From Acidobacteriota bacterium (GTDB lineage Bacteria; Acidobacteriota; Thermoanaerobaculia; UBA5066), in contig DAIOUV010000001.1 of assembly GCA_036759345.1 (NCBI GenBank), positions 29,097 through 93,096 of the forward strand: a stretch of 64,000 nucleotides of DNA. Direction: 5' to 3'. Positions 27,641 through 50,077 of the stretch are shown here, in pieces. Within the stretch, counting starts at the first letter, position 1; each line of letters opens with the position of its first letter. The notes under the pieces were generated by a model. That model was not told the origin of the DNA. It worked only from the letters and a program-made list of their open reading frames with translations, and did not search any database. Both the position numbers and the translations under genes were made by a program.

Positions 27641-30059
27641 CCAGCCTCGCGATCGTGACGGCCTGACCGCCCTCCTCTGCGTCGCCCCAGCGGTAGGACG
27701 CGATCCCGGGATGCGTCTTCAGGAACTCCCGCACCGCGGCCGCGAGGCGGCCCGTCCCGTGGCCGTGGACGAGGCGGAGCGCCGCCTTGCCGGAGAGAAG
27801 CGCGTCGTTGATGGCTTTCTCGACCACGGGAAGGGCATCGTCGACCCGCTGCCCGACGAGCACGACCTCAACAGTAGCCATCGTAGCCACGACTCCCGAC
27901 GAGGACGACGGGGAAGTCTGCGGCCGACTCGAAGCGGGGGCCAGGGTCTTGATCGGAATCGCACGGCCCGCCAGAGGAACAGATGAAGCAGGGGAGAGAG
28001 CCGCAAGCGATACCCTCACGCGCTTCCCCTTGACTTCGACGTCGGCCTCGCCGCGTCCCGCCGCGAGCGCGAGGAGCCGGCCCGTCGCGCCGAGGCCCGC
28101 GATGCGCACCTCCATGCCGACCGATACGGGCCCGGCCAGCGGGGGAGGCTCGTCGTCCCCGCCGAAGAGGCCCAGCGCGGCCTCGCGCGCCGACTGCGTG
28201 ACGGTCATCAGCGCGCCCCGCGAGACCCCGCGACCCGCCTTCAGGTCCTCGCGCATGCGCTCGAGCTCCTGCCGCGTCTTCTCGCGCAGCGTCGCGAGCG
28301 CCTTGTCAACTTGTTCCTTCGCCTTTTCCTTCACCTTCGCCCGCTCGGCGGCGAGCGCGGCGCGTTCCCTCTCGAGATCGAGGAGGCGGGCGGCGGACTT
28401 CTCCGCCGCCGCCTTCGCCTTGTCCGCTTCCTCGCGGGCGCGGCGCGTTTCGGTTTCGAGGCGCGTCAAGGCCGCGTCCGCGGCCTCCCACTTCTCGCCG
28501 AGCCGCTTCTTCGCGGAGGCGAGAACGCGCGCCGGCAGGCCCGCCTTCTCCGCGACCGCGAGCGCGCGCGATCGCCCGCTGGCGCCGGCCCGCACGCGGA
28601 ACGTGGGCCGGCCCGCCTTTTCATCGAACTCCATCGCCGCCGAGAGCACGTGAGGGCGGTCCTGCGCCCACTCCTTCACGGCGGAGAGGTGCGTCGTCGC
28701 GATAGTGACCCCGCCGCGCGCGAGATCCTCGTCCAGGACGGCGATCGCGAGCGCCGCTCCCTCGTCCGGATCGGTGCCGCTGCCGAGCTCGTCGAGGAGG
28801 ACGAGGCTCCGCGGCGTGGCTTCCGCAAGGACCCGAGCCGTGCGCGTCATGGCGGCCGCAAACGAAGAAAGGTCTCCGAGAAGGTCCTGCGCGTCGCCCG
28901 CGACGACGAGCACCTTGTCGAACACGGGAAGCGTGGAGCCCGGTCCGCACGGAATCGCGAAGCCCGACTGCGCGAGCAGCGCGAAGAGGCCGGCGGTCTT
29001 CATGGCGACGCTCTTGCCGCCCGCGTTCGGGCCCGAGAGGAGCAGGAGCCGCGAGCCCTCGGGCAATTCGAGGTCCAGGGGCACGGCGTCCGAATGACGT
29101 TCCTCGAGCTCTCCGAAGACGTCCGCCCGGAGATCGGCGAGGCGCCGGTCCAGAAGGGGATGGCGCGCGGCCCTGAGGACGAGCCGATTCGAGAAGTCGG
29201 GGAATACGCCCGCGACGCGCGACGAAAACTCCGCGCGCGCCTGGAACGCGTCGAGCTCCGTGAGCACCTCCACCGCGGCCACGAGGTCCCCGCGCCGCGC
29301 CGAAAAGCGGCCCGTCAGCGCCACGAGGATGCGGTGCACTTCCTCGCGCTCTTCTTCGACGGCTTCGGCGAGCGCGTTGTTGTCCTCGACGACGAGGAGC
29401 GGCTCGACGAAGACGGTCTGGCCCGAGCCCGACCGCTCGTGCAGGAGGCCGCCCACCTGGTCGCGCCGATCCGCGCGCACGGGCAGGCAGTAGCGGCCGC
29501 CCTTTTCCGTCACGTAGCCGCCCGACAGTGCGTCCGGATGCGTCCGCGCGACCTCCTCGAGCTTCCGGACGACTTCCTTCCTCAGCCGCTGGATCGACGA
29601 GCGGATCGCGTAGAGGCGCGCGGACGCCGTGTCCTTGACACGCCCGTCGGGCTCGAACGTGGGCTCGCGCTCTGCGAGCAGGTCTTCGAAGGACGCGAGA
29701 GGAAAGAGCAGGTCGGAAAGAGCGGTGAGCGGGAGGTCGGGAACCGGCACGGCGACGCGCGCGCCCTCCGCGCGCTCGACGAGGAGGAAGAGGTCGAGGA
29801 GATCCTCCGGCGGAAGCGCGCGCCCCTGCGGGCCGAGGCGTGAGACGAGGGGAGCCCCCTCGTCGAGCCCCCCGAGAGCGACCGGAGGGCGAAGCGCGCG
29901 GCGCGCGAGGAGATCCCGGGTGACGCCGAGGCGACGCACGACCTCGAACGTATCCGGCGAAGGCATGGCGCCATGGACCCGGTCCCGGCCGCGCTCCGTG
30001 GAACAAAAACGCCCGGCGAGCCGAAGCGCGCCGGGCCAGTCGAGTTCGGGATGACTCAC
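27633..30059 (-). CDS. mutS2: Endonuclease MutS2 with Smr domain
   Basis: SGQTVFVEP, GPNAGGKS, LLDELGSGTDP, TTHL and C-terminal HGHGTGRL. GTG start at 30059. Confidence 0.93.
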   Translation of the reverse strand: MSHPELDWPGALRLAGRFCSTERGRDRVHGAMPSPDTFEVVRRLGVTRDLLARRALRPPVALGGLDEGAPLVSRLGPQGRALPPEDLLDLFLLVERAEGARVAVPVPDLPLTALSDLLFPLASFEDLLAEREPTFEPDGRVKDTASARLYAIRSSIQRLRKEVVRKLEEVARTHPDALSGGYVTEKGGRYCLPVRADRRDQVGGLLHERSGSGQTVFVEPLLVVEDNNALAEAVEEEREEVHRILVALTGRFSARRGDLVAAVEVLTELDAFQARAEFSSRVAGVFPDFSNRLVLRAARHPLLDRRLADLRADVFGELEERHSDAVPLDLELPEGSRLLLLSGPNAGGKSVAMKTAGLFALLAQSGFAIPCGPGSTLPVFDKVLVVAGDAQDLLGDLSSFAAAMTRTARVLAEATPRSLVLLDELGSGTDPDEGAALAIAVLDEDLARGGVTIATTHLSAVKEWAQDRPHVLSAAMEFDEKAGRPTFRVRAGASGRSRALAVAEKAGLPARVLASAKKRLGEKWEAADAALTRLETETRRAREEADKAKAAAEKSAARLLDLERERAALAAERAKVKEKAKEQVDKALATLREKTRQELERMREDLKAGRGVSRGALMTVTQSAREAALGLFGGDDEPPPLAGPVSVGMEVRIAGLGATGRLLALAAGRGEADVEVKGKRVRVSLAALSPASSVPLAGRAIPIKTLAPASSRPQTSPSSSSGVVATMATVEVVLVGQRVDDALPVVEKAINDALLSGKAALRLVHGHGTGRLAAAVREFLKTHPGIASYRWGDAEEGGQAVTIARLDV

Positions 30060-38283: not shown

Positions 38284-40179
38284 TCAATCTGTCGGCGGGT
38301 CTCCCCGGCGTTCGGCCTCCAAGGCGAGGTCGATGAGCGCGTCGGCGAGGCGGGTGGCTCCTAAGGAATCCTCGCCGAGAGCCTCCGCGAAACGCGCGCG
38401 CACGCTCGCCTCGCGGGCCTCGTCGCGGATCGGGCGGCCCGAGGATTTCTTCACGGCGCCCACGAGGCGCGCGAGGTCGAGTCTGCGCGCGGCGAGCCGC
38501 GCGATGTCGCTGTCCACGCCGTCGATCGCGCGCCGGATCCTCTCCACCGAACCGCTCGCGCCGGGCAGGATTCCGAACTCGTCGAGGAGCTCCTCGAGGT
38601 CCTCGGGCAGAAGCGCCTGAGGCCCGTCGGAGAGCGCGGATTCGGGGGCATCGTGGACTTCGATCATGAGCCCGTCCACGCCCGCGCCCCACGCCGCGCG
38701 CGCGAGGCCCGGCACGAGATCGCGACGGCCCGCGGCGTGCGACGGATCCGCGAAGAGCGGGAGATGCGTGAGGGAGCGCGCGACCAGGAGGCCTCCGAGA
38801 TCGAGGGTGCCACGCGTCGCCTTCTCGAACGTGCGGATGCCGCGCTCGCACAGGATCACGTTCTTACAGCCCGCGTCGAGGAGGTACTCGGCCGAGGAAA
38901 GCCACTCTTCGACGGTCGTACCGAACCCGCGCTTCAGGAAGACGGGCCGCCCGCTCGCGCCCGCTTCCTTCAAGAGGTCGTAGTTCTGACAATTCCGGGC
39001 GCCGATCTGCAGCACGTCCGCGCGCGCGCCGACCGGACCGACCTGCGCGGGCGCCATGACCTCGGTCACGATGGGAAGACCGACCGCGTCGCCCGCCTCC
39101 TTCAGCCAGCCGAGGGCATCGAGGCCGTGTCCCTGAAACGAGTACGGCGACGTGCGGGGCTTGAAGACGCCGCCACGGAGAGCCGTGGCGCCCGCACGTG
39201 CGACGGCCCGCGCGAGGCGAAGGATCTGCTCGGGCGATTCGACGGCGCACGGGCCCGCGATCACGGCGCGCCGGCCGCCGCCGACGACGAAAGGCCCTAC
39301 GGCGACGACGCTCGGCTCGCGCACCTCGGTCACCTTCGGGATTTCCTTCATCCGCGGCGGGCGCACGAGCTCCGGGGCGGGCCCGAGCCACCGCACGCGC
39401 TCGCCCGCGGCGAGGCGTGCCGTTCCCGCGACCGCCCGGGCGACGCTTTTCTCGGGCACGACGGCGAACCCGCGCACCGGTTCCGCCGGCGTGCCCGGCA
39501 GCGAGAGCAGTTCCGCTTCGGCCTCGGCCAGAGCCGACGAAGCCCGGACTCCCGCGTAGAAGACCACGCGCGGCGCGAGGGACTCGGGCTCGGCCGCCCG
39601 GTCGAGCCGCCAGAAACGTGTCGCATTCGGGCGCACGTCCGAGACGTCCTCTTCGAGGATCAGGAGGCCCGCCTCGAGCGCCGCCTCCTCCGAGCACACA
39701 GCCGCCCGCGCCCCGCCGGCTTCCTTCACGCGGAACGCCGCATAGGCGGTGTCGTGCGTCTCGATCGGAATCGCGTCCAGGCGCGCGAGGAGATCGCGGC
39801 ACTGTCTAAGCGCCGCGGCCTGCGAGTGGACCTCACGTACGTCTTCGAGCGCAAGGCCCGGGGGAGCCGCGAGAACGAGCCTCACGGGCACCTCGATCTC
39901 CGCCCCGACGGTGACCCGTGACTCGGGTTGGGCGAGCGACCGGGCGAGCGCGTCGAGCGACTCGAGGATCGGCCCCTCGACGCGGTTCACCGCCGGCAGC
40001 ACCGCGCAGGCGATCTCTCCGGCGAGGAGCGCGCGCAGCATGCGCTCGAAGGTGGGGAAGGCGACCGGGCGGCCGCACCGCGCCGCCGCGCGGGCTCCGA
40101 ACGATCCCGGCTGCCCCTGATAGCCCGCGAGGACCGGCTCGTGCGTCGTCCCCCGTTCTTCCTCTTCGATCTCCGGCAT
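38284..40179 (-). CDS. Triple fusion: prephenate dehydratase-like / class I-beta DAHP synthase / chorismate mutase (AroQ)
   Basis: N-terminal GYQGQPGSF...NATRFW; middle [38 protein letters not shown]; C-terminal [27 protein letters not shown]. Confidence 0.88.
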
Positions 40180-40195: not shown

Positions 40196-41044
40196 CTACG
40201 GCCGCGAGGCGTCTGCCCGCGTCGAGGTCGGCTGTTTCGTGACCTTGGCGTCTTCCAGGACGACGGGGTACTGATAGCCCGCGCCGAAGTCCTTGTCGAC
40301 GTGAACGACGCCCTTCACGACCACGACGTCGCCGACGGCCGCCGGATCGCCGGTCGTCACCGTCAGGTCGTCGTCCTTCTTCTCGCGCGAGCCCGAACCG
40401 TCACGGATGTGGTACCAGTTCCGGCCCATGATCCCCGTGTTCGCCTTCACGACCTTGCCGCGCACCGTCACGGTCTTGTCTTTCAGTTGGGCGCGCTCGG
40501 CGAAGACCTGCGCCACCGTGCGCGCGTCCTTCCCTTCGGCCTTCGGGACCTTGACGTCTCCGGCGTCCGCCGGCCCGCCCGCTGCTGCGGCGTGCGGCGC
40601 GGCCATCGGCGCGCCCTTCGCTGCTTCGGCCGCGGCGCCGTGCGCCGAGATGGGCGCCGGAGGCGCGCCCGCCTTTCCGTCCCCGAGGCTGCCGAACACG
40701 ATGCGGTCGAACTTCCGGTTCAGCGTCTTGCTTTCGAAGCCGTCCATCGACATCGCGTTCACGACCGTGACGCTGTCGCCCTTCTTGACGTTCGCCTTCG
40801 TGATGGCGGCCCACGTTTCGCCGCCGCCTTCCGTCCTGAGGCGCATGTACGTGTAGTCGGAGGCGTCGAGCGTCTCCTCCACGATGCCCGCGACGCTCGT
40901 GAGGGCCGGCTGGGGCGCCTGAGGAACGGCGGCAGCCGCGGAAGCCGAGGACGTGGGAGCGGACGGGGCCGCGGCGGGAGCCGCGGGCTTCTGGCCGCAT
41001 GCGGCGGTGAGGGCGAGCGCGAGGACGAGAACGGTTCGGCGCAT
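40196..41044 (-). CDS. Lipoprotein with two OB-fold-like domains (NrfJ-like)
   Basis: Lipobox LTAA|C, then YTYMRL..ETWAA and [29 protein letters not shown] motifs. Confidence 0.65.
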
Positions 41045-41091: not shown

Positions 41092-41119
41092 AAAAAAGGC
41101 CGCCCGGGGAGGGCGGCCT
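41092..41119 (-). terminator. Rho-independent terminator ending the redox/GcvH-like operon
   Basis: Minus strand GGCCGCCC-TCCC-GGGCGGCC followed by TTTTTT. Confidence 0.8.
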
Positions 41120-41148
41120 TCGGATTCCGCGCCGCGGACCATCGGGGC

Positions 41149-41862
41149 TCAGGTCTCGAGGAAGGACGAAACGGCCAGTCGCCACTTTTCCTCGGACAGG
41201 AGAACCGACGGCGGCAGGATGAGTTCGCCGCCGTCCGCCGCGGCGAGCCCGAGCTCGCCCTCGAAAAAGCGCGAGAGACGCGCCTCCTCGCCGCGGAACC
41301 ACGCGTGTGCCTTGGGGCCGATCGGGAAGCTGCGATACGCCTCCGACGCCGGACGTACCGTGAACAGCCACCCCTTTTCGTACGGAGACGAACGGAGGAG
41401 TGTCGGGTGATTCCCGACGCGCGCGTTCACGGCCACGATCGTCCCGGTCACTGGAGCCGGAATGACGGCCGTGCGGGCGCCGCAGGCGATCGTCACGACG
41501 GGACGGCCGGCGGCGACCGTGCTGCCGGGCAGCGGCAGGGCGACGGCCGTGACGCCGTGCATGAGGTGCCCGGCGAGATCGTCGAGGCCCACGCGCAGGC
41601 GGCCGCCGCGCTCTTCGTCGAGCCACGTGTGCGCGGGCGCGTAGCGCCGGTTCTCGGCCAGGAGGAGCCCCTCGACTTCCACGAGTCCGAGGCGGCGCGC
41701 CCTCAGCCACCTGAAGGTGAGCTCCGCCGCGTGGTAGATCCCCCAGGCCGCGAGGACCGGCACGAGGGCGACGGCAACGAAGGCAACGAGAAGGAGGAGC
41801 CGGACGAGGAGGCCGACCATGAAGATGGCGGCTCCCGTAAGCAGCGCGAGGAGGGTTTCCAT
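41149..41862 (-). CDS. Membrane-anchored GcvH-like protein B, lipoyl lysine absent
   Basis: Long N-terminal hydrophobic segment; YAPAHTW, VGLDD, PAPVTGTIVAVN and PYEKGWLF motifs. The ESVK position reads ACGA. Confidence 0.85.
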   Translation of the reverse strand: METLLALLTGAAIFMVGLLVRLLLLVAFVAVALVPVLAAWGIYHAAELTFRWLRARRLGLVEVEGLLLAENRRYAPAHTWLDEERGGRLRVGLDDLAGHLMHGVTAVALPLPGSTVAAGRPVVTIACGARTAVIPAPVTGTIVAVNARVGNHPTLLRSSPYEKGWLFTVRPASEAYRSFPIGPKAHAWFRGEEARLSRFFEGELGLAAADGGELILPPSVLLSEEKWRLAVSSFLET

Positions 41863-41867
41863 GATGC

Positions 41868-42218
41868 TCACCTTTCTTTCGGTACCGCGTGACACGTCGC
41901 GCAGTCCTCGAATCCGTGGGCGCTCTTGCCGTCGTGGCATTTCCCGCACGCGGCGCCCTTTTCCATGTCGGCGTGCTTGAGCGTGCGGGCCGCGCGGGCC
42001 GCGGACGGAGGCAGGATGGAGAAGAGCGCCGGATGGCACGGCGTGCAGTCCGGCTTCGTCCCGTCGACGTGGGCCAGGTGGCGGAAGGTCACGACGCCCG
42101 GGCTGCCGTCTCCCTGAGGAAGAGGACGGTCCTTCGGAAGGCGGGGGAGACCGGTCGCGAGAACCGTGGCGGTCAACCCGAGCGTCAGGAGAAGGGCCGA
42201 CAGGTGGAGGTGTTTCAT
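41868..42218 (-). CDS. Triheme cytochrome c7-type protein
   Basis: Sec signal peptide; VTFRHLAH, CTPCH, LKHADM, CGKCH and CATCH motifs. Confidence 0.9.
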   Translation of the reverse strand: MKHLHLSALLLTLGLTATVLATGLPRLPKDRPLPQGDGSPGVVTFRHLAHVDGTKPDCTPCHPALFSILPPSAARAARTLKHADMEKGAACGKCHDGKSAHGFEDCATCHAVPKER

Positions 42219-42228
42219 GACGGCCGCC

Positions 42229-42894
42229 TCACTCTCCGCCCAGGAATCGGCGGGCCAGTTCGTCCCAGTGGTCCGGGTCGAGGGCTCGGGCGATGCCGTG
42301 GACCGGGGTGCCGCCATCTTGCAGGACCACTCCGAGTTGAGGCGTGAGGCGCTGGGCGAGCTTCCCCGCCGCGGCGTCCAGGAATCGGCGGGCGGCCTCG
42401 CCCGTGAAGAGGTTCTTGAGGTTGCCGGTCAGCCAGCGGGGCTCGACTTTCATGAGCCAGCCGGCGCCGTACGGGTCGCGGAGCGCATCGGCGGGATGCG
42501 CCCGCGCCGCTTCGTTCACCGCGACGACGTGGCCGTCGATCGGCGAGAGCACGTCGAGCCGCTGGCCTCCGGCCACGAGGGAGAAGGCCTTCTGTCCCTG
42601 CCGCACCGGCGCTCCGATCGGGGGCAGAAGGAGCTGGTCCAGGGGTCCCACGAGCTTGTGCGCGAAGTCGTCGAGGCCGACTTCCACCGTTCCCCCCTCG
42701 GGCCGCGCCCACGCGTGGCCGGCGTGCAGGTGGACGCCGTTCGGAACCTGGAACCAGCCGAAGCCGAAGGCGTGGACGGGCGCCTCCCCCTGGACGAAGC
42801 GCCAGAAAGGAATGAAGAGGAGCAGGTAGGAGATCGCGAGGCCGTACTCGAGGGCCCTCGCGGTATAGGGACTCAGGAGGGTGTGTTCGTTCAT
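42229..42894 (-). CDS. Membrane-anchored GcvH-like protein A, lipoyl lysine absent
   Basis: TM LEYGLAISYLLLFIPFWRF; HAGHAWA, VGLDDFA, SPIDGHVVAVN and DPYGAGWL motifs. The ESVK position reads VAGG. Confidence 0.85.
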   Translation of the reverse strand: MNEHTLLSPYTARALEYGLAISYLLLFIPFWRFVQGEAPVHAFGFGWFQVPNGVHLHAGHAWARPEGGTVEVGLDDFAHKLVGPLDQLLLPPIGAPVRQGQKAFSLVAGGQRLDVLSPIDGHVVAVNEAARAHPADALRDPYGAGWLMKVEPRWLTGNLKNLFTGEAARRFLDAAAGKLAQRLTPQLGVVLQDGGTPVHGIARALDPDHWDELARRFLGGE

Positions 42895-42922
42895 GGCTGT
42901 CTCTCTTCCTTCTCTCTACTTC

Positions 42923-44152
42923 TCAATGCGCGCCGCGCCAGTCGGGGTGCTCGTGGACCACGGGCATGCGGTTCACGATCCAGCGGAAGATCAGGACGCC
43001 GATCGTCACGATCGTGAGCGACGTGACGACCTCACCCATGCTCGGGACGTAGCGGTCTTGGACGTTCCAGTTGAACGCGATGAGCGAGACGTTGAAGCGG
43101 TTGAGGACGACGCCGAGGACCGTGAGGAGACCGGCGAGCCGGGCCAGCCGCGCGTTCTGACGCCGCGCCGCGAATGCGAAGAGGAGCGACGGCAGGAGGA
43201 TGAAGCCCAGCATCTCGAGGAGGTACCAGGCCCCCCAACCGGTCGCGAGGAGGTCGAAACGGCCGCTCGCGACGAGGCCCTGCAGCCGGATGAAGAAGTA
43301 CGCGAAGAGGACGACCGCGCCGCCCTTCGCGAGCCCGAGCGTGATCTTGTCGAGATCGACCGGGGCCAGAGGGTCCAGCCGGTCATGGAAAGCGCGATGC
43401 GAAAGCGCGCTCTCGACGATCACCATGCCGATGCCCGCCGAAATGCTCGAGACGAAGAAGAAGATCGGGAGGAATGGCGAGTACCAGAGAGGGTGGAGCT
43501 TGCCCGGCGTCATCAGGAAGAAGGCGCCGAGGGAGGACTGGTGGAGCGTCGAGAGCGTGACGCCGAGGACGATGATGCCGATCGTCAAAGAGCCGAGGAG
43601 ACGGCGCACTTTCACGAGGCCGAGCCATTCGAGCGCGGCCGGCGCGAACTCGAGAGCGAGGACCATCAGGTACAGGAAGACGCACCAGCCGACCTCGTAC
43701 ATGACGGCGGTCGTGCCGGGCGTCAGGAAGAACTGATAGGGGAGGCGCCACGGCTGGCCAAGGTCCACGATGAGCCCGAACAGGACGAGGGCGTAGCCGA
43801 GGAAGCCGGTCAGGATCGCGGGGCGCAGGATCGGCCGGTAGGCCTTCTGGCCGAAGATGTAGACGGCGCAGGCGACCGTGTAGCCGCCCGCCGCGAGCGC
43901 GACGCCGCAGATGACGTCGAAGGCGACCCAGATGCCCCATGCGTTCGTCTGGGACAGGTTCGTCGCCGCGCCGAGCCCTTTCCAGAAGCGGAAAGCCATC
44001 GTCGGGATTCCGGCGAGGAGGATCGCCGCCGCGATCGCGTTGGCCGGCGTCAGGAGGCTTTTCGCGTATTCGCGGAAGGACATCCCGAGGAAGACGTTCT
44101 CCCTCATCCAGGGGCCCCCGAGGAACGCGGGTTTCAGCGCCTGCTCAGACAT
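42923..44152 (-). CDS. NrfD/PsrC-family polytopic membrane protein (HybB/HmcC-like)
   Basis: WGIWVAFDVICGVALAAGG, RPAILTGFLGY, DLGQPWR, YEVGWC, STLHQSSLG, KLHPLW and NRFNV motifs. Confidence 0.9.
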   Translation of the reverse strand: MSEQALKPAFLGGPWMRENVFLGMSFREYAKSLLTPANAIAAAILLAGIPTMAFRFWKGLGAATNLSQTNAWGIWVAFDVICGVALAAGGYTVACAVYIFGQKAYRPILRPAILTGFLGYALVLFGLIVDLGQPWRLPYQFFLTPGTTAVMYEVGWCVFLYLMVLALEFAPAALEWLGLVKVRRLLGSLTIGIIVLGVTLSTLHQSSLGAFFLMTPGKLHPLWYSPFLPIFFFVSSISAGIGMVIVESALSHRAFHDRLDPLAPVDLDKITLGLAKGGAVVLFAYFFIRLQGLVASGRFDLLATGWGAWYLLEMLGFILLPSLLFAFAARRQNARLARLAGLLTVLGVVLNRFNVSLIAFNWNVQDRYVPSMGEVVTSLTIVTIGVLIFRWIVNRMPVVHEHPDWRGAH

Positions 44153-45056
44153 GGCCTTCCTCCTGCTTTCCGTTGCCTTCCGCCGCCGCGACTTCGTCGC
44201 GGCGCTTGCTGAAGGTGTACATGCCCATCAGGAGCGGCGGCCAGAGGGTGATGATGAAGGGCACCGCCGAGAGCGCACCGTCGGCGAGCTCCGGATACGA
44301 CTTCTTCTCGATGCCGGCGGGAAGCGCGAGCGACTCGAACGGCACGTCGGAGATGTAGAGCCAGCTCGTGCCTCCGGCTTCGTTTTCTCCGTAGATCTCG
44401 TGGACGTACTTGTCGGGGTTCGTGTAGATCCGCGTCCTGGCCTCCTCGAGGAGGTCGGCGCGTCTGCCGAACTTAAGAGCGCCCGACGGGCAGACCTCGG
44501 TGCAGGCCGGCGCGAGACCCTTGCCCTGGCGCTCCGCGCAGAAGGTGCACTTCTTGACGAGCGGCGTCGCGCTCGAGAACTCGTACTTCGGAACTCCGAA
44601 GGGGCACACGATCATGCAGTAGCGGCAGCCAAGACAGCGGTCCGCGTGGTACACGACCGGCCCTTCGGGCGTCTTCTCGAGGGCCTTGACGACGCAGCCC
44701 GAAGCGCAGGCCGGCGTCACGCAGTGCATGCACTGCGTCTTGGCATAGCGGTCGTCGCCGCTCGCGCTCTTGCGTTCGCCCTTCTGGACGACCGTGTAGG
44801 CCGTGGGGCTCGTCGTGCGCTTCGACGCGAACACGGAGTCGTCCCCGGGTTTCTCGGGGCCCAGGAGCGCGTTCGCCTCGGCGCAGGCGGCCTCGCAGCC
44901 GCGGCAACCGACGCAGCGCGTCGTGTCCACGAGGACGCCCCGGGCGTCCTTCGACGCGGGCAGGACCGAGGCCCGCGACGTCGCCGCCGCGCCGGCTACT
45001 CCGGCGGTTCCGGCGGCGGCGGCGAGCTTGAAGAGAGACCGGCGATTCAGCTTCAT
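44145..45056 (-). CDS. Tat-exported 4x[4Fe-4S] protein with C-terminal membrane anchor (HybA/HmcB-like)
   Basis: NRRSLFK twin-arginine signal; CVGCRGCEAAC, CMHCVTPACASGC, CLGCRYCMIVC and CTFC..PACTEVC; C-terminal hydrophobic helix. Confidence 0.92.
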   Translation of the reverse strand: MKLNRRSLFKLAAAAGTAGVAGAAATSRASVLPASKDARGVLVDTTRCVGCRGCEAACAEANALLGPEKPGDDSVFASKRTTSPTAYTVVQKGERKSASGDDRYAKTQCMHCVTPACASGCVVKALEKTPEGPVVYHADRCLGCRYCMIVCPFGVPKYEFSSATPLVKKCTFCAERQGKGLAPACTEVCPSGALKFGRRADLLEEARTRIYTNPDKYVHEIYGENEAGGTSWLYISDVPFESLALPAGIEKKSYPELADGALSAVPFIITLWPPLLMGMYTFSKRRDEVAAAEGNGKQEEGHV

Positions 45057-45067
45057 CGCGGCCTCTC

Positions 45068-45154
45068 TCAGGCCCGGGCCGCGCGGCCGAGCGCGCGGTC
45101 GTTGAGGAGGAGGAGAAGAACGAAGAGGAGCGCGAGGGGAACCGTGGCGATCAT
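45068..45154 (-). CDS. 28-aa single-pass membrane peptide MIATVPLALLFVLLLLLNDRALGRAARA
   Basis: GGAGG RBS, ATGA overlap with the upstream stop, hydrophobic core with basic tail; ends 11 nt before the Fe-S gene start. Confidence 0.6.
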   Translation of the reverse strand: MIATVPLALLFVLLLLLNDRALGRAARA

Positions 45155-45390
45155 GGGGCCTCCCTCCCGGAGCCGTTCGCCGCCACGGCGGGCGGCTCCG
45201 TGTACGCGGCGCCCGTCCCGAGCCTCTTCACGGCCTCCTGATAGAGGGGGCAGTCCCCGTACCGGTTCGCCTGGCAGGGCCGGACCGACACGAGGTGGTC
45301 AAGAGGCAGCATCTTTTTCGTCGGGCAGGCGTCGCAATAAAGCATCACGACTTCTTTGAGCAGCGGGCAGGTGGTCGAGGTCTCTCGCAT
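45151..45390 (-). CDS. 79-aa Cys-rich protein
   Basis: MRETSTTCPLLKEVVMLYCDACPTKKMLP...PCQANRYGDCPLY has 5 Cys. It is the first ORF after the sigma54 promoter. Confidence 0.7.
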   Translation of the reverse strand: MRETSTTCPLLKEVVMLYCDACPTKKMLPLDHLVSVRPCQANRYGDCPLYQEAVKRLGTGAAYTEPPAVAANGSGREAP

Positions 45391-45406
45391 GGCGACTCGT
45401 CTAAGC

Positions 45407-45421
45407 GCAAGGCCCGCGCCA
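45407..45421 (-). promoter_or_regulatory. sigma54 (-24/-12) promoter
   Basis: Minus strand TGGCGCG-GGCC-TTGC, one mismatch from TGGCACG-N4-TTGC. It lies directly downstream of a sigma54 activator gene. Confidence 0.85.
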
Positions 45422-45449
45422 TCCGCCGGCGGTTCGGCGAACAAGGTGT

Positions 45450-45534
45450 CAACTGCTTGTTGCGAGGAGACTTGGGCCGCTTCCGTTCCGCCGCCCGCGC
45501 GGCCGGGAGCGTTCAGATCCTCAACGGAGTGTTG
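45450..45534. promoter_or_regulatory. Two CAAC-N5-GTTG palindromes, candidate upstream activator sites
   Basis: CAACTGCTTGTTG at 45450-45462 and CAACGGAGTGTTG at 45522-45534, 72 bp apart. Confidence 0.55.
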
Positions 45535-45550
45535 TCTTTCTCACCGCTCC

Positions 45551-46921
45551 CTAGTCGGGCTCGAAAACGCCGTCGTCCGCGCGTTTCAGCCCGAATTTGT
45601 GGATCTTGCTGTAGAGGGTCACGCGGTCGATGTCGAGGATCCGCGCCGCCTGCGAGACGTTTCCACCCGTGTTCCTAAGCACCGCGGCGATGTGCTGCCG
45701 TTCGATCTCGGCGAGCGAGGCGGGATGCGACGGGATTTCCTCCCCGCGAAGGGTGAGGCCCAGATCGCCCGGCAGGAGGAGCGGCCCCGTCGAAACGACG
45801 ACGCCTCGCTCGAGGACGTTGCGCAGTTCGCGCACGTTGCCCGGCCACGAGTGGGCGAGGAGAAGCGCCATGCCCTCGGGCGACACGCCCTCGACCGGCT
45901 TCTTCATTTCCACGGCGAGCTGCTCGAGCAGGATGTCGACGAGAAGGGGGATGTCCTCCTTGCGGTCGCGGAGCGGAGCGAGCGTGAGCGTGATGACGTT
46001 CAGCCGATAGAAGAGATCCTCCCGGAAGCGGCCCTCGGCAATGGCCTTCTGAAGGTCCCGGTTCGTCGCCGCGATGATGCGGACGTCCACCGGTATCGAT
46101 TCCGTCCCGCCAACGCGCGTCACCCGGCGCTCCTCGAGGACGCGCAGGAGGTCGAGCTGCAGCTTCGGGCTGATGTCGCCGATCTCGTCGAGGAAGAGGG
46201 TGCCGCCGCTCGCCGCCACGAACTTGCCCTCGCGGCGCCCGTTGGCGCCCGTGAAGGAGCCCTTTTCGTAGCCGAAGAGCTCGGATTCGAGAAGCGTCTC
46301 GGTGAGGGACGCGCACGACATCGCCACGAAGGGTTTGTCGTGGCGCGGGCTCTCGGCATGGATGGCGCGGGCGAGAAGCTCCTTGCCCGTGCCGCTCTCG
46401 CCGAGGACGAGGATCGTCGAGGGGCTGCGCGCGGCGGTCCGCGCGAGCTCGAGCGTGCCCTGCATGGCCGACGACTTCGTGACGAGGTCGTGGAACCGGT
46501 ACTCGCGTTTGAGCGCCTTGCGGAGGATCACGTTCTCCCTCACGAGCGCCTGCTGCGCCACGATCTTCTCCACCAGGAGGCTGACCTCCTCCGGGTCGAA
46601 GGGCTTCACGATGTAGTCGAACGCCCCGAGCTTCATGGCGTTCACCGCGGTGTCGACGGTGGCGTACGCCGTCATGATCACGACGGCGGTCTCGGGGCTC
46701 TTCTCCTTGACGCGCTTGAGCACTTCGAGGCCGTCGATGCCCGGCATCTTGAGGTCGACGAGGAGGATCGACCAGCGCCCCTCCTCCACGGCCTTCACGC
46801 CCGCGAGGCCGTCCGGCGCCGTGCCGATCGTGTAGCCGTCCTTCTCGAGCCAGCCCGAGAGGGACTCCCGCACGATCTCCTCGTCATCGACCAGCAGGAT
46901 CCGCGTGTTCTTCTTGCTCAT
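45551..46921 (-). CDS. sigma54-dependent response regulator (NtrC/AtoC type)
   Basis: Receiver (LLVDD, VDLKMP), GESGTGKE, GSFTGA, LFLDEI, WPGNVREL and Fis-type HTH. Confidence 0.96.
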   Translation of the reverse strand: MSKKNTRILLVDDEEIVRESLSGWLEKDGYTIGTAPDGLAGVKAVEEGRWSILLVDLKMPGIDGLEVLKRVKEKSPETAVVIMTAYATVDTAVNAMKLGAFDYIVKPFDPEEVSLLVEKIVAQQALVRENVILRKALKREYRFHDLVTKSSAMQGTLELARTAARSPSTILVLGESGTGKELLARAIHAESPRHDKPFVAMSCASLTETLLESELFGYEKGSFTGANGRREGKFVAASGGTLFLDEIGDISPKLQLDLLRVLEERRVTRVGGTESIPVDVRIIAATNRDLQKAIAEGRFREDLFYRLNVITLTLAPLRDRKEDIPLLVDILLEQLAVEMKKPVEGVSPEGMALLLAHSWPGNVRELRNVLERGVVVSTGPLLLPGDLGLTLRGEEIPSHPASLAEIERQHIAAVLRNTGGNVSQAARILDIDRVTLYSKIHKFGLKRADDGVFEPD

Positions 46922-47468
46922 GGGGTTCTCCGATCTCGTCGACGTTCTCGAGGAAGAGGGCCCGGCACGTCTCGCAGAGGTCCGGCTGCTTGGCGTCCAC
47001 GTCCCGAAGGCTCGCCGAGCGCGCCATCGCGCAGCGGGGGCGGAGGCAGTGAAGGAGCCCGAACGTGTGCCCGAGCTCGTGGATGACTTCGGTCCGGAGG
47101 CGGATCGGGAGCCGGGCCGCCTCGCCGGGAAGCCCCGCGCCGACAAGGCGCGCGGTCGACACGACGGCGGCAGGGCCCTTGAGCTGCGCCTCGCCAAAGA
47201 CGAACGTCAAGACCGGGATGAAGAGGTCCGCGTCCGTCAGGCCGATCAGGCGCGCGGCGCCGCGCGGCCGGTTCGCCGCGAGCCACAGGAGGATGCGACG
47301 GGAGGAATGCTGTTTGCGCCGCGCGTCGTACGCCTCGTCCGGCCGGGTCGCGGGGACGTCGAGGCGCACCGGCAAGCGGAAGACTTTCTGCACGTGAGCG
47401 CGCACGCCTGCGAGAAGCTCCGGGTCGATGTTTCCCGTCCCGATCCACCACAGGGCGACCTCGCTCAC
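46884..47468 (-). CDS. Archaemetzincin-family Zn metalloprotease
   Basis: LFIPVLTFVFGEAQL, VVSTARL and HELGHTFGLLHC-x4-C-x-M...CETC motifs. The GTG start overlaps the kinase stop. Confidence 0.9.
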   Translation of the reverse strand: MSEVALWWIGTGNIDPELLAGVRAHVQKVFRLPVRLDVPATRPDEAYDARRKQHSSRRILLWLAANRPRGAARLIGLTDADLFIPVLTFVFGEAQLKGPAAVVSTARLVGAGLPGEAARLPIRLRTEVIHELGHTFGLLHCLRPRCAMARSASLRDVDAKQPDLCETCRALFLENVDEIGEPHEQEEHADPAGR

Positions 47469-49147
47469 GTGCCCGCGGTCGGCCCGGCGACCGCGGGGGC
47501 CGCCGAGGCCGCGCCGCCCTCGGCGGCGAGGGGGAGCCGGAGCGTCATCGTCGTACCCTGCCCGGCGCTGCTCGTAACCCGCATCGAGCCGCCGTGCTTT
47601 TCCACGATGCCGTAGACGACGGAGAGCCCGAGCCCGGTGCCTTTCTCCTTCGTCGTGAAGAACGGGTCGAAGATGCGCGAGAGAAGATCGGGCGCAATTC
47701 CGGCGCCCGTGTCGGTGACACCGATGTCGACCTCGCGACTGCCGGAGAAGAAGTGGGAGGTGAGCGTCAGGGTGCCGCCGGCGGGCATCGCGTCGCACGC
47801 GTTCAAGAGGATGTTCATGAACGCCTGCCGGAGCTGCCCGAAATCGGCGTTCACCTGACCCGTGCCCTCGAATCTCCTGACGACCGTGATGCCCTGGATC
47901 TGCATCTTGTGCGCCGCGAGCGAGAGCGCCTCCTCGAGCGCGCGCACCGGGTCGAAGACTTTCAGCTCCAGCGGCCTGACCCGCGCGAAGTCGAGGAGGT
48001 TCCTCACGATGACGGTGCAGCGCTCGGACTCCCTCTGGATGAGCGACAGGTTCTTGAGGCACGCCGCGCGCGTCGCGTCGTCCGGCGGGCCGGTCTCCAG
48101 CATCCGGATCATGAGCCGCGCGAACGTGAGGATCCCCGCGAGGGGATTGTTGATCTCGTGCGCGATGGAGGCCGAGAGCTGGCCGAGCGAGGCCAGCTTC
48201 TCGCTGCGGGCGAGGACCTCGTGAGCGCTTCGGAGCGCCGCCGTGCGGTCCTCCACCTGACGTTCGAGATCGTTCGTGAGGTGCTCGAGGTCGCGGCGCG
48301 TCCGGGCGAGCGACGCGTTCATCTCGTTGAACGAGTTCGCCAGGATTCCGAGCTCGTCCGACGAGCGGACGGCGAGCGTCGCCGACAGGTCGCCGTGGCC
48401 GACGCGCTGCGTGGCCTCCACGAGCTCCGCCACGGGGCGAAAGACGATGCGGCGCGCCGCGGCACTGACGAGAGCGGCGAGAACGATCACCGCGCCGAGC
48501 GCGCCGCCCGCCATGCGCAGGGACTGCCTGTGCAGGCTCGCGTCGATCTCCTTCAGCGAAATGCCGATGTCGACGACGCCGAGGACGTGCTTTTCGGGCG
48601 GGTGAGCGTGGCAGGCGGCCGTCGAGCAGGCAGGCTCGTTGTAGATGGGCGTCACCATGCCCAGCACGCGGTGGCCGTTCGTGCGGAACAGGCGGCTGCG
48701 CGCGGACGTCGTGGGCGCCACGATCGGCTGGCCCGCCGCGTGGCACGCCGTGCAGGCCTCGGCATCCTTGTCGACCGACGCGCCGATGTCGCGCGCGTTC
48801 GTCGAGAACATGATGCGGCCTTCCTTGTTCAGGACGCGGACCTTCTCGATGCCCTCGAGGCGGCCGATGCTCTCCATGATCCGGTACGCGTCGTGCCGCT
48901 GGTCCTCGAGCATGAGATCCCGCGTGCTGCTCGCGATCGTGCTCGAGAAAAGCGCGGCCCCGCGGATGACCTCTCCGATGGAATGCTCCCTCTGGGAGCG
49001 GATCGAGAGAAACGCGAACAGCGCAATCGTCGCGAGCGAGACCGCCGCCGCGGCGCCCGTCAGCTTGAAACCCAGATGCCGGTGGAACGGGATGCCGAAC
49101 ACGGCTTCCTCCAGCCTGAGCATCCGGCAACCCGGGGGACAGTCCAT
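47465..49147 (-). CDS. Sensor histidine kinase with periplasmic heme-c-motif sensor, HAMP, HisKA and HATPase domains (start 49147 or 49123)
   Basis: Two TMs flanking CTACH (48740-48754) and CSTAACH (48608-48628); AHEINNPL H-box; DTGAGI, FDPFFTTK and GTGLGL boxes. Confidence 0.93.
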   Translation of the reverse strand: MDCPPGCRMLRLEEAVFGIPFHRHLGFKLTGAAAAVSLATIALFAFLSIRSQREHSIGEVIRGAALFSSTIASSTRDLMLEDQRHDAYRIMESIGRLEGIEKVRVLNKEGRIMFSTNARDIGASVDKDAEACTACHAAGQPIVAPTTSARSRLFRTNGHRVLGMVTPIYNEPACSTAACHAHPPEKHVLGVVDIGISLKEIDASLHRQSLRMAGGALGAVIVLAALVSAAARRIVFRPVAELVEATQRVGHGDLSATLAVRSSDELGILANSFNEMNASLARTRRDLEHLTNDLERQVEDRTAALRSAHEVLARSEKLASLGQLSASIAHEINNPLAGILTFARLMIRMLETGPPDDATRAACLKNLSLIQRESERCTVIVRNLLDFARVRPLELKVFDPVRALEEALSLAAHKMQIQGITVVRRFEGTGQVNADFGQLRQAFMNILLNACDAMPAGGTLTLTSHFFSGSREVDIGVTDTGAGIAPDLLSRIFDPFFTTKEKGTGLGLSVVYGIVEKHGGSMRVTSSAGQGTTMTLRLPLAAEGGAASAAPAVAGPTAGT

Positions 49148-49208: not shown

Positions 49209-49571
49209 CTAGCCGTCGCTCCTGGAGATCAGGATCCACGAGAGAAGCGTCGACACGACCGAAATGATGAGCGCGCCGAGGAATGCCGGCACGAATCCGT
49301 CGACCGTGAATTCGATGCCGAGCCCGCGCCCCAGCCAGGCCGCCAGCATGAGCATCAGGGCGTTCACGACGAGCGTGAACAAACCCAGCGTGAGCAGTAT
49401 GATCGGGCAGCTCACGAGCTTCAGGAAAGGACGCACGAAGGCGTTCACCAAGCCGAAGACGAGCGCGAGCGCCAGGATGGAGCCGATCCCGCCCGCATGA
49501 ATGCCGGGCACGAACGAAGCCGCGACCCAGAGCGCGGCGGCGTTGATGAGAATACGCAGGATGATCTTCAT
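49209..49571 (-). CDS. Four-TM YvlD / 'phage holin family' membrane protein
   Basis: FGLVNAFVRPFLKLVSCPIILLTLGLFTLVVNA...GFVPAFLGALIIS. Confidence 0.85.
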   Translation of the reverse strand: MKIILRILINAAALWVAASFVPGIHAGGIGSILALALVFGLVNAFVRPFLKLVSCPIILLTLGLFTLVVNALMLMLAAWLGRGLGIEFTVDGFVPAFLGALIISVVSTLLSWILISRSDG

Positions 49572-49645
49572 GTCGCGAACCTCGGCAAGCATTCTAGTTT
49601 GAGGACGGTGCGGGTGCGACGCGCCGAAGACGGGAAAAAGGACAG

Positions 49646-50077
49646 ATGACCGAACAGAAGTACCGCCAGCGCGGATACAAGGACGCGGAACGGTCCGGGA
49701 GCGGGAGCGGCTTCGGCCCTTCGGGCCCCCCTCGAGGCGAGAGGATCGGTCCGAAGGGCCGCGGCGCCGACCGCAACCGGGCCGAGGTCTTCCGGTGCAA
49801 GACCTGCAGCGAGAAGAACGACCCGGAGGTCGGACCCGAGTCCGTCTGCAAGAAGTGCGGCGCCGCGCTCCACGCGTGCGCGCAGTGCCGGTACTTCGAC
49901 GGCGCCGCGCCCATGCAGTGCCGGCAGGAGATTCCCGCGCTCATCCCCGCGAAATCGAAGGCGAACGCCTGCACGTTCTACGCACCCACCGTGTCGCTCG
50001 ATCTCACCGGCGCGAAAGCCGCCGACTCGCCGGACGGCGCCCGCTCGGCGTTCGACCAGCTCTTCGGAAAGCGCTGA
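49646..50077 (+). CDS. Hypothetical Cys-rich (probable multi-Zn) protein
   Basis: KYRQRGY N-terminus, CKTC, CKKC, CAQC, plus C..ANACTFY; ends FDQLFGK. Confidence 0.7.
   Translation: MTEQKYRQRGYKDAERSGSGSGFGPSGPPRGERIGPKGRGADRNRAEVFRCKTCSEKNDPEVGPESVCKKCGAALHACAQCRYFDGAAPMQCRQEIPALIPAKSKANACTFYAPTVSLDLTGAKAADSPDGARSAFDQLFGKR

Follow-up and report, generated by a model that had tools for sequence, protein, structure and literature searches.

What is the function of a respiratory operon that encodes a quinone-coupling membrane module and a periplasmic cytochrome, no enzyme to go with them, and in addition two proteins resembling the H-protein of the glycine cleavage system, next to a protease? 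The question is raised by a ten-gene locus of an Acidobacteriota bacterium (Thermoanaerobaculia, UBA5066; GenBank assembly GCA_036759345.1), which lies in a stretch of 64,000 nucleotides (nt) covering positions 29,097 to 93,096 of contig DAIOUV010000001.1. This whole stretch is called the window below, and coordinates are counted from its first letter. The locus occupies 41095-49147 of the minus strand and is divided by a 160-nt spacer into a regulatory block of three genes (a sensor kinase, an archaemetzincin and a sigma-54-dependent regulator) and a structural block of seven (a small Cys-rich protein that we call Cys4, a membrane micropeptide, an iron-sulfur (Fe-S) protein, an NrfD-family protein, GcvH-like protein A, a triheme cytochrome c7 and GcvH-like protein B). 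Its Fe-S/NrfD/c7 core is a minimal member of the kind represented by Hmc, Nhc, Qrc and Cbc4, and it falls short of both Hmc and Hyb in subunit content and in equivalog scores. The new part is the accessory set: two membrane-anchored, lipoyl-less proteins of the GcvH fold, Cys4, the micropeptide and the archaemetzincin. We see about an even chance that the locus as a whole encodes a quinone:cytochrome c7 complex that is switched by a haem sensor and sigma-54 and carries an accessory module on its inner face.

A Conserved Ten-Gene Locus

The ten genes named in the original prediction, an earlier reading of this DNA, were found as ten open reading frames (ORFs), all on the minus strand and at the positions first assigned to them. 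It had also described the genes within each block as overlapping or separated by at most 28 nt. This is true of the structural block; in the regulatory block the overlap between the archaemetzincin and regulator genes amounts to 38 nt with the start codons chosen here. The intrinsic terminator proposed at the end of the locus is there as well: an 11-bp GC-rich stem followed by a T-run (41121-41095), 28 nt past the stop codon of GcvH-like B.

Are these genes together by chance? A search with GcvH-like A gave 828 clusters at 90% identity, and a scan of one genome per species yielded 158 loci, of which 80 were taken for analysis; the nearest relatives of the window fall in the Thermoanaerobaculia. 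Gene order was read from tblastn with all ten window proteins together with precomputed gene calls; gene calling based on the GC content of third codon positions (GC3) was set aside, as it mis-called strands in some loci. The same order (kinase, archaemetzincin, regulator, Cys4, Fe-S protein, NrfD, GcvH-like A, c7, GcvH-like B) was found in the Acidobacteriota (Thermoanaerobaculia, Holophagales and Vicinamibacterales), in Anaeromyxobacter and in other Myxococcota, and independent gene calls with Pfam marks confirm the arrangement in Anaeromyxobacter sp. K, A. oryzae and A. oryzisoli. Methylomirabilis and Rokubacteria have the same set with the GcvH-like B gene ahead of the Fe-S gene, and a Syntrophobacterales locus (L066) has its three regulatory genes in the opposite orientation. 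The complete partner set is present in 39 of the 58 loci with enough flanking sequence. The cluster has stayed together in four or more phyla of bacteria. Since the same order recurs in such distant phyla, the arrangement is far beyond chance; mere adjacency was rejected on this ground. In the synteny search that the original prediction had called for, the set thus behaves as a conserved unit.

The Fe-S/NrfD/c7 Core and the Question of a Catalytic Subunit

The Fe-S protein (44145-45056, 303 amino acids) resembles HmcB and HybA. It has a twin-arginine translocation (Tat) signal with the motif RRSLFK, four Cys motifs for four [4Fe-4S] clusters, a match to PF13247 and a C-terminal membrane helix. 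The gene after it (42923-44152, 409 amino acids) encodes an HmcC/HybB-like integral membrane protein of the NrfD family (PF03916, E=2.8e-19). Both are close relatives of the Hmc proteins without being their equivalogs: the Fe-S protein scores 349.8 bits against the HmcB model NF045715 (cut-off 420), and the NrfD protein scores 512.9 bits against the HmcC model NF045714 (cut-off 550). The next-best NCBIfam models are HybA (NF008134, 242.6 bits, below its cut-off) and HybB (276.9 bits), and QrcD follows at 100 bits. With HmcC and HybB as its best scores, the NrfD protein belongs to the 10-helix QrcD/HybB/HmcC clade of the NrfD/PsrC family. When E. coli HybB was aligned with four NrfD proteins of the module (that of the window and three orthologues, two of them from low-GC loci), 13 HybB residues were invariant: D58, Y84, R89, Y99, D109, Y141, E148, E155, H184, S186, H200, E291 and R329. 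These positions have been listed as residues of the quinone site or of the ion pathway, and replacement of R89, Y99, E148 or H184 lowers hydrogen oxidation (PMC8076601). Judged by these residues, the NrfD subunit looks functional.

The third member of the core is a cytochrome c7 of 116 amino acids with a signal peptide (41868-42218). Three CxxCH motifs and scores above cut-off for PF14522 (47.2 bits, cut-off 24.8, E=2e-12) and TIGR04257 (61 bits, cut-off 40) place it among the PpcA-type triheme cytochromes. Its gene is the sole plausible ORF with at least two CxxCH motifs in the whole 64 kb, and a c7 gene occupies this position in 44 of the 58 loci.

The original prediction held that no catalytic subunit is encoded here, and for this lineage the claim stands. 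Neither the window with its flanking genes nor most of the related loci contain a gene for a hydrogenase, a molybdoenzyme or a large multihaem protein. The 16-haem HmcA, the cytochrome b HmcE and the CCG protein HmcF, which would accompany the HmcBC-like pair in an Hmc complex, are not encoded in the window, and neither are the [NiFe] small and large subunits of a hydrogenase 2 (HybOABC). Far from always including a catalytic subunit, the roughly 90 homologous loci include just 3 with a hydrogenase gene at a distance of 10 kb or less (L033, L053 and L075). Beyond this lineage the claim has to be narrowed, because the cluster is always followed in Myxococcota by genes for a 9-haem cytochrome and a cytochrome b (20 loci, all from this phylum). 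The Acidobacteriota loci have neither this pair nor a nearby hydrogenase, and it is for them that the absence of a catalytic subunit holds.

The premise behind the claim, that Fe-S/NrfD pairs such as HybAB, HmcBC and NrfCD normally come with a catalytic partner, was too strong. The same Fe-S/NrfD dimer underlies the quinone:cytochrome c modules Nhc, Qrc and alternative complex III (PMC8076601; PMC6303296), and also Cbc4 of Geobacter (bioRxiv 10.1101/2025.04.14.648717). The Fe-S/NrfD/c7 core is therefore a quinone:cytochrome c module without a catalytic subunit, of a kind already known.

Could the pair still be the membrane anchor of an enzyme encoded elsewhere, such as a Hyb-type periplasmic [NiFe] hydrogenase or a molybdoenzyme? 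The near-threshold similarity to HybA and HybB speaks for this, as do two c7-less loci that adjoin [NiFe] hydrogenase and HycI genes (L033, L075), the hydrogenase near L053, and a molybdopterin oxidoreductase gene immediately upstream in L087. Each of these signs is weakened by its context, since hydrogenases occur in just the three loci named, the hydrogenase of L033 has a cytochrome b of its own, and the L087 molybdoenzyme lacks a Tat signal and so must be cytoplasmic. With the operon supplying its own periplasmic partner, c7, in most loci, we regard a hidden enzyme as improbable on the evidence of the window and the related loci. A general link to hydrogenases, which the HybAB similarity and L033 had prompted, was rejected because only the three loci have one.

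The neighbourhoods mentioned here have some further features. In L033 (11449-17894) and L075, the c7-less variants of the cluster are followed by genes for a HycI-type maturation protease, a receiver-less sigma-54 activator, the [NiFe] hydrogenase small and large subunits and a cytochrome b. In the Anaeromyxobacter-type loci (L001, 12442-15174; L084 and L085, 12304-15053; and 17 more from Myxococcota), the genes directly downstream encode the 9-haem cytochrome c (about 350 amino acids) and a cytochrome b of the PhsC/Ni_hydr_CYTB type. These loci continue with a 190-residue protein and a HisKA_3 kinase/GerE regulator pair, and in 18 of the 20 with an M48/M56 peptidase.

The Accessory Proteins

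GcvH-like A (42229-42894, 221 amino acids) and its paralogue GcvH-like B (41149-41862, 237 amino acids) both match PF01597, the family of the glycine cleavage H-protein. The AlphaFold2 model of A (predicted local distance difference test score, pLDDT, 81) superimposes on the H-protein of T. thermophilus (1onl) with a TM-score of 0.90 and a root-mean-square deviation of 1.5-1.6 Å, so the fold is not in question. The original prediction had called the proteins lipoyl-less, and the alignment bears this out: at the position of the lipoyl-lysine (ESVKAAS in E. coli) there is Gly in A, Ala in B, and Glu, Gln or Gly in the Anaeromyxobacter orthologues. Their scores against TIGR00527, 53.8 and 58.6 bits, are about half of the cut-off of 115.85 for a functional H-protein. 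Databases nevertheless label such proteins "glycine cleavage system H protein"; Cys4 proteins are labelled "hypothetical".

A GcvH fold invites the thought of a swinging arm that carries lipoate or another group on a different residue and moves reducing equivalents or sulfur, as LbpA does, and one related locus (L090) indeed adjoins Hdr-like genes. Among 16 GcvH-like A sequences there is no invariant lysine or cysteine in the hairpin or anywhere else, and the same is true of 26 Cys4-GcvH fusion proteins outside their Cys4 domains. Nor does the cluster contain a gene for a lipoate ligase or synthase. A role as lipoyl carrier was rejected on the basis of the alignment, and we consider any swinging-arm function highly improbable.

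Both GcvH-like proteins carry a C-terminal extension of about 50 residues, helical in A, with an invariant (Q/A)DGG loop that is modelled at pLDDT below 50; A starts with a membrane helix, and B with a longer hydrophobic N-terminus followed by RWLRARR. In the 16 A sequences the helix motif EY..A..YLLLFIPFWR and the QDGG loop are both invariant. The sequence LGLAAADGG of B is one of only two matches to its motif in the window, the other being in A. The invariance of the helix motif is more than a simple anchor would need, and it suggests that the helix packs against a fixed membrane partner. As for the orientation, the mean number of Lys and Arg residues is 1.06 before the helix and 2.5 after it, and acidic residues are mostly found before it. 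This distribution, together with the existence of soluble and receiver-fused homologues, fits the proposal of the original prediction that the GcvH-like domains face the cytoplasm, which is most likely the case. Fold searches with the models of A and of a fusion protein returned H-proteins only; neither the C-terminal extension nor the Cys4 domain found a match.

GcvH-like A, its invariant helix retained, is also encoded in additional solo copies in unrelated contexts in Anaeromyxobacteraceae (L046, L053, L059, L068, L070, L074, L081, L082 and L083). One of them is near a [NiFe] hydrogenase and two are beside molybdopterin oxidoreductases, and A. oryzae has at least three loci.

The Cys4 protein (45151-45390, 79 amino acids) has no signal peptide and no Pfam or NCBIfam match. 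Its four invariant cysteines, C8, C19, C39 and C47, are spaced C-x10-C-x19-C-x7-C, and probably bind a metal or a Fe-S cluster. A profile search of 1.84 billion representatives (E <= 0.001) found 281 clusters at 50% identity. At 90% identity the family has more than 1000 clusters, and the best 120 matches listed are all close relatives. Many matches of the profile search are fusion proteins of 240-370 residues that combine one or two Cys4 domains with a GcvH-like domain; the latter has the DGG extension, and the proteins are without a membrane helix. In one fusion family a receiver domain precedes these domains, and another family has a NUDIX domain in addition. In 26 fusions with two Cys4 domains, all eight cysteines are invariant and the DGG motif is nearly so (at least 90%), and the AlphaFold2 model of one of them (pLDDT 85) shows compact small Cys4 domains with no match in the PDB. 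Natural fusions are classical evidence that the corresponding separate proteins, here those of the window, work together, and the receiver fusion indicates that they do so in the cytoplasm. The Cys-rich protein and the GcvH-like proteins are one module, fused in other lineages, which the original prediction could not see. In four of the fusion proteins (P0430, P0441, P0457 and P0398) a conserved Cys-rich insert of the pattern C.W.K...YR.C..DYDC..CEF ... RKCRY.L.G...YK.C.N.YEC..C, which belongs to no family, separates the Cys4 and GcvH-like domains.

The 28-residue hydrophobic peptide with a single helix (45068-45154) has a start codon that overlaps the stop codon of the Cys4 gene (ATGA). A hydrophobic ORF of 22-30 codons is found at this overlapping position in nearly all loci, and its N-terminus is conserved as MIATVPLALL in Acidobacteriota and as MMFAF...NLVAA in Anaeromyxobacter. 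The C-terminus of Cys4 (...GREV...) is conserved too, and the same DNA provides the GGGAGG ribosome-binding site for the peptide. The micropeptide is real. In distant loci its place is taken by single-helix membrane proteins of 60-88 residues that end in LG.T.ADGG, as the tails of the GcvH-like proteins do; the window's peptide has no such motif. They are encoded at 4420-4665 in L087, 3327-3506 in L091, 9890-10108 and 14046-14309 in L088, 6103-6360 in L048 and about 7616 in L066.

The archaemetzincin (peptidase M54; 46884-47468, 194 amino acids, no signal peptide) matches PF07998 and passes the cut-off of NF033823 (148.6 bits against 145). The signature HExxHxxGxxxCx4CxM...CxxC is intact in the window protein (HELGH...C..C), which is thus a predicted protease, and complete in 53 of 55 orthologues. 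In the original prediction the protease was part of the sigma-54 circuit. In the window the genes adjoin; in distant loci, however, it is found within the structural operon beside the Cys4-GcvH gene, and it is co-encoded with the module even where the gene order differs (L066, L087, L090 and L091). The preserved motif and these contexts show that it travels with the Cys4/GcvH module rather than with the regulators alone. We know of no physiological substrate for any archaemetzincin, be it AmzA, AMZ1/2 or AMZ-tk. The window protein shares with them the complete zinc-binding and Cys4 structural motif, and differs in its fixed genomic partnership with the Cys4 and GcvH-like proteins. That partnership suggests a substrate: the target is probably the DGG loop of the GcvH-like proteins, which is invariant and flexible, and its processing would serve their maturation or their turnover.

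Probable Regulation by a Di-Haem Kinase and Sigma-54

The regulatory genes form a sigma-54 two-component system. The sensor histidine kinase (47465-49147, 560 amino acids) has HAMP, HisKA and HATPase domains in Pfam and two membrane helices around a periplasmic domain. The response regulator of the NtrC/AtoC type (45551-46921, 456 amino acids) has a receiver, an AAA+ sigma-54 activator and a Fis-type helix-turn-helix domain (HTH_8) according to Pfam and NCBIfam, and is conserved beside the kinase and archaemetzincin genes in related loci. Both score far below the equivalog cut-offs of AtoSC and ZraSR, and are equivalogs of neither.

The two haem-c motifs first noted in the kinase are conserved across phyla. 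The periplasmic loop contains a CxxCH motif (CTACH) and, 42 residues later, a Cx4CH motif (CSTAACH), and both are conserved in position in about 40 orthologues from several phyla as well as in the low-GC loci L088 and L091; in two loci the second motif is Cx3CH. Cx4CH is a known variant for haem-c attachment, seen in cytochromes c3, and periplasmic sensors based on haem c exist, for example those of the Geobacter GSU0582/GSU0935 type. The description of the kinase as "heme-sensing" has to be corrected in this light: haem, predicted to be covalently bound, would serve the kinase as a sensor, and would not be the thing sensed. The sensor domain itself has a sub-threshold score of 17.5 bits for PF21563 (cut-off 27), and a sequence search of the PDB found no solved relative, only chance-level matches to cytochrome c6.

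As predicted, there is a sigma-54 promoter in front of the structural block. The -24/-12 element at 45407-45421, TGGCGCGGGCCTTGC, is the single match to TGGCRC-N5-TTGC on both strands of the 64-kb window (TGGCGC-N5-TTGC), and the annotated ATG of Cys4 lies 17 nt downstream. The strict pattern with a trailing W has no match in the window, and the site was recovered once the last base was relaxed. Of 54 related loci, 39 (that of Anaeromyxobacter sp. K included) have an element that agrees with 9 or more of the 10 consensus positions in the 250 nt before the Cys4 gene, compared with 0.016 expected per stretch from the background rate of the same sequences.

Two palindromes had been described along with this promoter, and both exist in the window. 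CAAC-N5-GTTG (45522-45534) is well conserved. In footprinting of 18 intergenic regions of the Thermoanaerobaculia type, the block TGAGAAA.ACAAC.....GTTGAG is nearly invariant. About 107 nt separate the palindrome from the -24 element downstream of it, as is typical of sites for enhancer-binding proteins, and it is the candidate activator site. The second palindrome, AACAAG-N10-CTTGTT (45440-45461), is conserved only in part, in the block ACAAGCAGTTGACACC (45445-45460), and only among close relatives; as a regulatory site it is a weak candidate.

A Complex with an Inner-Face Module, or a Signalling Module?

How might these parts work together? The di-haem kinase would sense the redox state or a haem ligand in the periplasm and phosphorylate the NtrC-type activator, which would then bind upstream, probably at CAAC-N5-GTTG, and open the sigma-54 promoter of the seven-gene operon. 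In the complex itself, by analogy with its relatives, c7 would exchange electrons with the Tat-exported four-cluster Fe-S protein, which would sit on the cofactor-less NrfD subunit, and NrfD would bind menaquinone or menaquinol near the periplasmic face. The protons of the quinone reaction would move by way of NrfD, along a channel that opens on the cytoplasmic side. Such a path has been shown for Qrc, which is electrogenic and reduces menaquinone with protons drawn from the cytoplasm; the same has been proposed for HybB and HmcC (PMC6303296). The c7/Fe-S/NrfD arrangement would thus make the complex a reversible quinone:cytochrome c7 oxidoreductase that links the quinone pool to periplasmic cytochromes and has no substrate-converting subunit, whichever way the electrons may flow. 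On the cytoplasmic face, and here we speculate, the two anchored GcvH-fold proteins might assemble with Cys4, the micropeptide probably packing in the membrane; this accessory module might dock on NrfD and gate or sense the activity of the complex, or tether a cytoplasmic partner, and the archaemetzincin might process the DGG loops. Beyond its existence, its conservation and its fusion pattern, all that we say of the accessory module we infer.

Several observations do not sit easily with this picture. Since NrfD contains no cofactor able to take electrons to a centre in Cys4 on the cytoplasmic side, a redox role of the inner-face module has no obvious wire. The c7 gene is absent from L030, L033 and L049. 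The connection between the protease and its putative substrate is one of guilt by association only. Finally, in L090, L086 (the same as L032) and L048, Cys4-GcvH genes are found with regulators but without Fe-S/NrfD genes, and these loci, together with the receiver fusion, appear to fit a role in signalling no less well than a structural role.

The main rival explanation follows from this last point. The Cys4 and GcvH-like proteins with the archaemetzincin may not be subunits of the complex at all, but a cytoplasmic module for signalling or feedback within the sigma-54 two-component system. The module might, for instance, provide the activator with a redox-sensitive partner, the amount of which the protease controls; the Fe-S/NrfD/c7 operon would then be one of several outputs. 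L090 has genes for an archaemetzincin, a regulator, a Cys4-GcvH fusion and a PAS kinase beside Hdr/Mvh-like genes, and no NrfD. A partial second copy in one Acidobacteriota genome (L086, 10001-19568) has Cys4 and both GcvH-like genes, without Fe-S/NrfD, next to a sensory-type [FeFe]-hydrogenase-like gene (Fe_hyd_lg_C), NuoE and NuoF genes, and genes for a GltD/Nqo3-like flavoprotein and a molybdopterin protein downstream; DRTGG and HATPase genes are upstream. The fusion of a receiver with Cys4 and GcvH (P0451) and the solo paralogues of GcvH-like A in Anaeromyxobacter also point towards signalling. L088 can be read in both ways: a fusion with two Cys4 domains and a 72-residue membrane protein come directly before the di-haem kinase and the regulator, yet the locus runs on into an 8-haem c3-type cytochrome, an 87-residue membrane protein and, at the contig end, an HmcB-like Fe-S gene. 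Two other loci keep the fusions inside Fe-S/NrfD operons. L087 has the molybdopterin oxidoreductase, archaemetzincin, Cys4x2-GcvH, an 81-residue membrane protein, HmcB-like Fe-S protein, NrfD and an anchored orthologue of GcvH-like A, and L091 has a di-haem kinase, sigma-54 regulator, a 59-residue membrane protein, Fe-S protein, NrfD, archaemetzincin and the receiver-Cys4-GcvH fusion. In the window and most loci, moreover, the genes are embedded in the structural operon as overlapping or nearly abutting ORFs, and the invariant helix of GcvH-like A is what one would expect of a protein packed on a fixed membrane partner. On this balance we find a purely signalling role unlikely, if well worth keeping in mind, and continue to favour the quinone:cytochrome c7 complex with an inner-face module.

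There is also a broader possibility. Cys4, the lipoyl-less GcvH-like proteins with their DGG extension and the archaemetzincin may form a new cytoplasmic module, in some lineages fused and in others split, which bacteria of several phyla would attach to NrfD complexes that interact with quinone and to other redox enzymes, and which would report on or gate their activity (Hdr/Mvh-like, or NuoEF/hydrogenase-like), under the control of sigma-54 and with the protease processing the DGG loop. We offer this as a tentative proposal.

Comparison with Known Systems

The original prediction called the system undescribed, and full-text literature searches found no characterised complex and no paper that matches the set. 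The genes are not mentioned in the paper on the sigma-54 regulome of D. vulgaris. A match in the literature on D. desulfuricans turned out to be an ordinary gcv operon, and was rejected.

The closest relatives of the core are the Hmc and Nhc complexes of Desulfovibrio (HmcABCDEF and NhcABCD). They share with the window a periplasmic c-type cytochrome made of c3/c7-type units as electron partner and a tiny membrane subunit (HmcD, NhcD), and Nhc is likewise without a substrate-converting subunit. Their cytochromes, however, have 16 or 9 haems in place of the three of c7, and the window has no counterpart of the cytochrome b HmcE or the CCG protein HmcF. Conversely, neither complex has anything like the two GcvH-like proteins, Cys4 or the archaemetzincin, and regulation by a sigma-54 two-component system is a feature of the locus described here. 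The hosts are different as well: Acidobacteriota, Myxococcota and Methylomirabilota here, sulfate reducers there. Qrc (QrcABCD) and the HybA/HybB pair of E. coli belong to the same 10-helix NrfD clade and have the same conserved residues in the quinone pocket and the proton channel on the cytoplasmic side, and c7 has a weak match to QrcA; the molybdopterin-like QrcB and the hydrogenase subunits are missing from the window, and the accessory module is new.

Two systems of Geobacter can be compared by their published descriptions. Cbc4 (CbcSTU) of G. sulfurreducens also consists of a small cytochrome c, a 4x[4Fe-4S] protein and an NrfD-type subunit, and is proposed to be a quinol:cytochrome c oxidoreductase that feeds triheme cytochromes of the PpcA family (bioRxiv 10.1101/2025.04.14.648717). 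CbcS, however, is a membrane-anchored tetrahaem protein of the NrfH/CymA type and not a c7, and no GcvH-like, Cys4 or protease genes are described in that work. In the other system, the sigma-54 response regulator BccR drives cbcBA, an operon for a quinone oxidoreductase; there too, two small hypothetical genes come first behind a sigma-54 promoter. The output of cbcBA is a cytochrome bc complex, whereas that of the window is NrfD/Fe-S/c7. Downstream of the Myxococcota cluster, the multihaem cytochrome and the cytochrome b resemble CbcBA homologues, and such homologues have been reported near BccR-like regulators in Anaeromyxobacter (Joshi et al., bioRxiv 10.1101/2021.04.15.440034). The pair downstream of the Myxococcota cluster may be the one that these authors describe.

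With GcvH, GcvH-L and LbpA, the GcvH-like proteins have the fold in common (TM-score about 0.9). They differ from all three by lacking the lipoyl-lysine and by having an N-terminal membrane anchor and the DGG extension of about 50 residues. They differ from GcvH also in the place of their genes, which are in a respiratory operon and not beside gcvT and gcvP.

Neighbouring Genes

The flanks of the cluster are unrelated to it. Just past the terminator (40196-41044, minus strand) is a gene for a lipoprotein-like protein of 282 residues with an Ala/Pro-rich linker and no Pfam match. It is followed by a 631-codon ORF (38284-40179, minus strand) in which prephenate dehydratase, 3-deoxy-D-arabino-heptulosonate 7-phosphate (DAHP) synthase and chorismate mutase are joined in a trifunctional protein of aromatic amino-acid biosynthesis. 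Other flanking genes encode a UPF0047 protein and a holin-family membrane protein (49209-49592); divergent from the latter is a gene at 49646-50077 on the plus strand for a 143-residue protein with several CxxC pairs (zinc-ribbon-like) and no Pfam match.

What the Locus Means

Modules of NrfD and Fe-S proteins are very widespread quinone-coupling devices of anaerobic respiration, and all the characterised ones that we know of are bare on the cytoplasmic side. A conserved module on the inner face would add a new layer of control or coupling to this class of enzymes, and the accessory module has a real chance of being by itself a device of a new kind. The Cys4 domain has so far no annotation as a family, and the anchored lipoyl-less H-proteins are at present mis-annotated as glycine cleavage proteins; if the broader reading given above is true, they would show the H-protein fold at work in respiration for a purpose other than carrying a cofactor. 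For the archaemetzincins, a family that spans archaea to humans, the DGG loop would then be the first physiological substrate, and the cluster provides a specific candidate. The hosts, Thermoanaerobaculia, Vicinamibacterales, Anaeromyxobacter and Methylomirabilota, are abundant in soils, peat and sediments, habitats in which periplasmic and extracellular electron transfer affects the cycling of iron, nitrogen and carbon.

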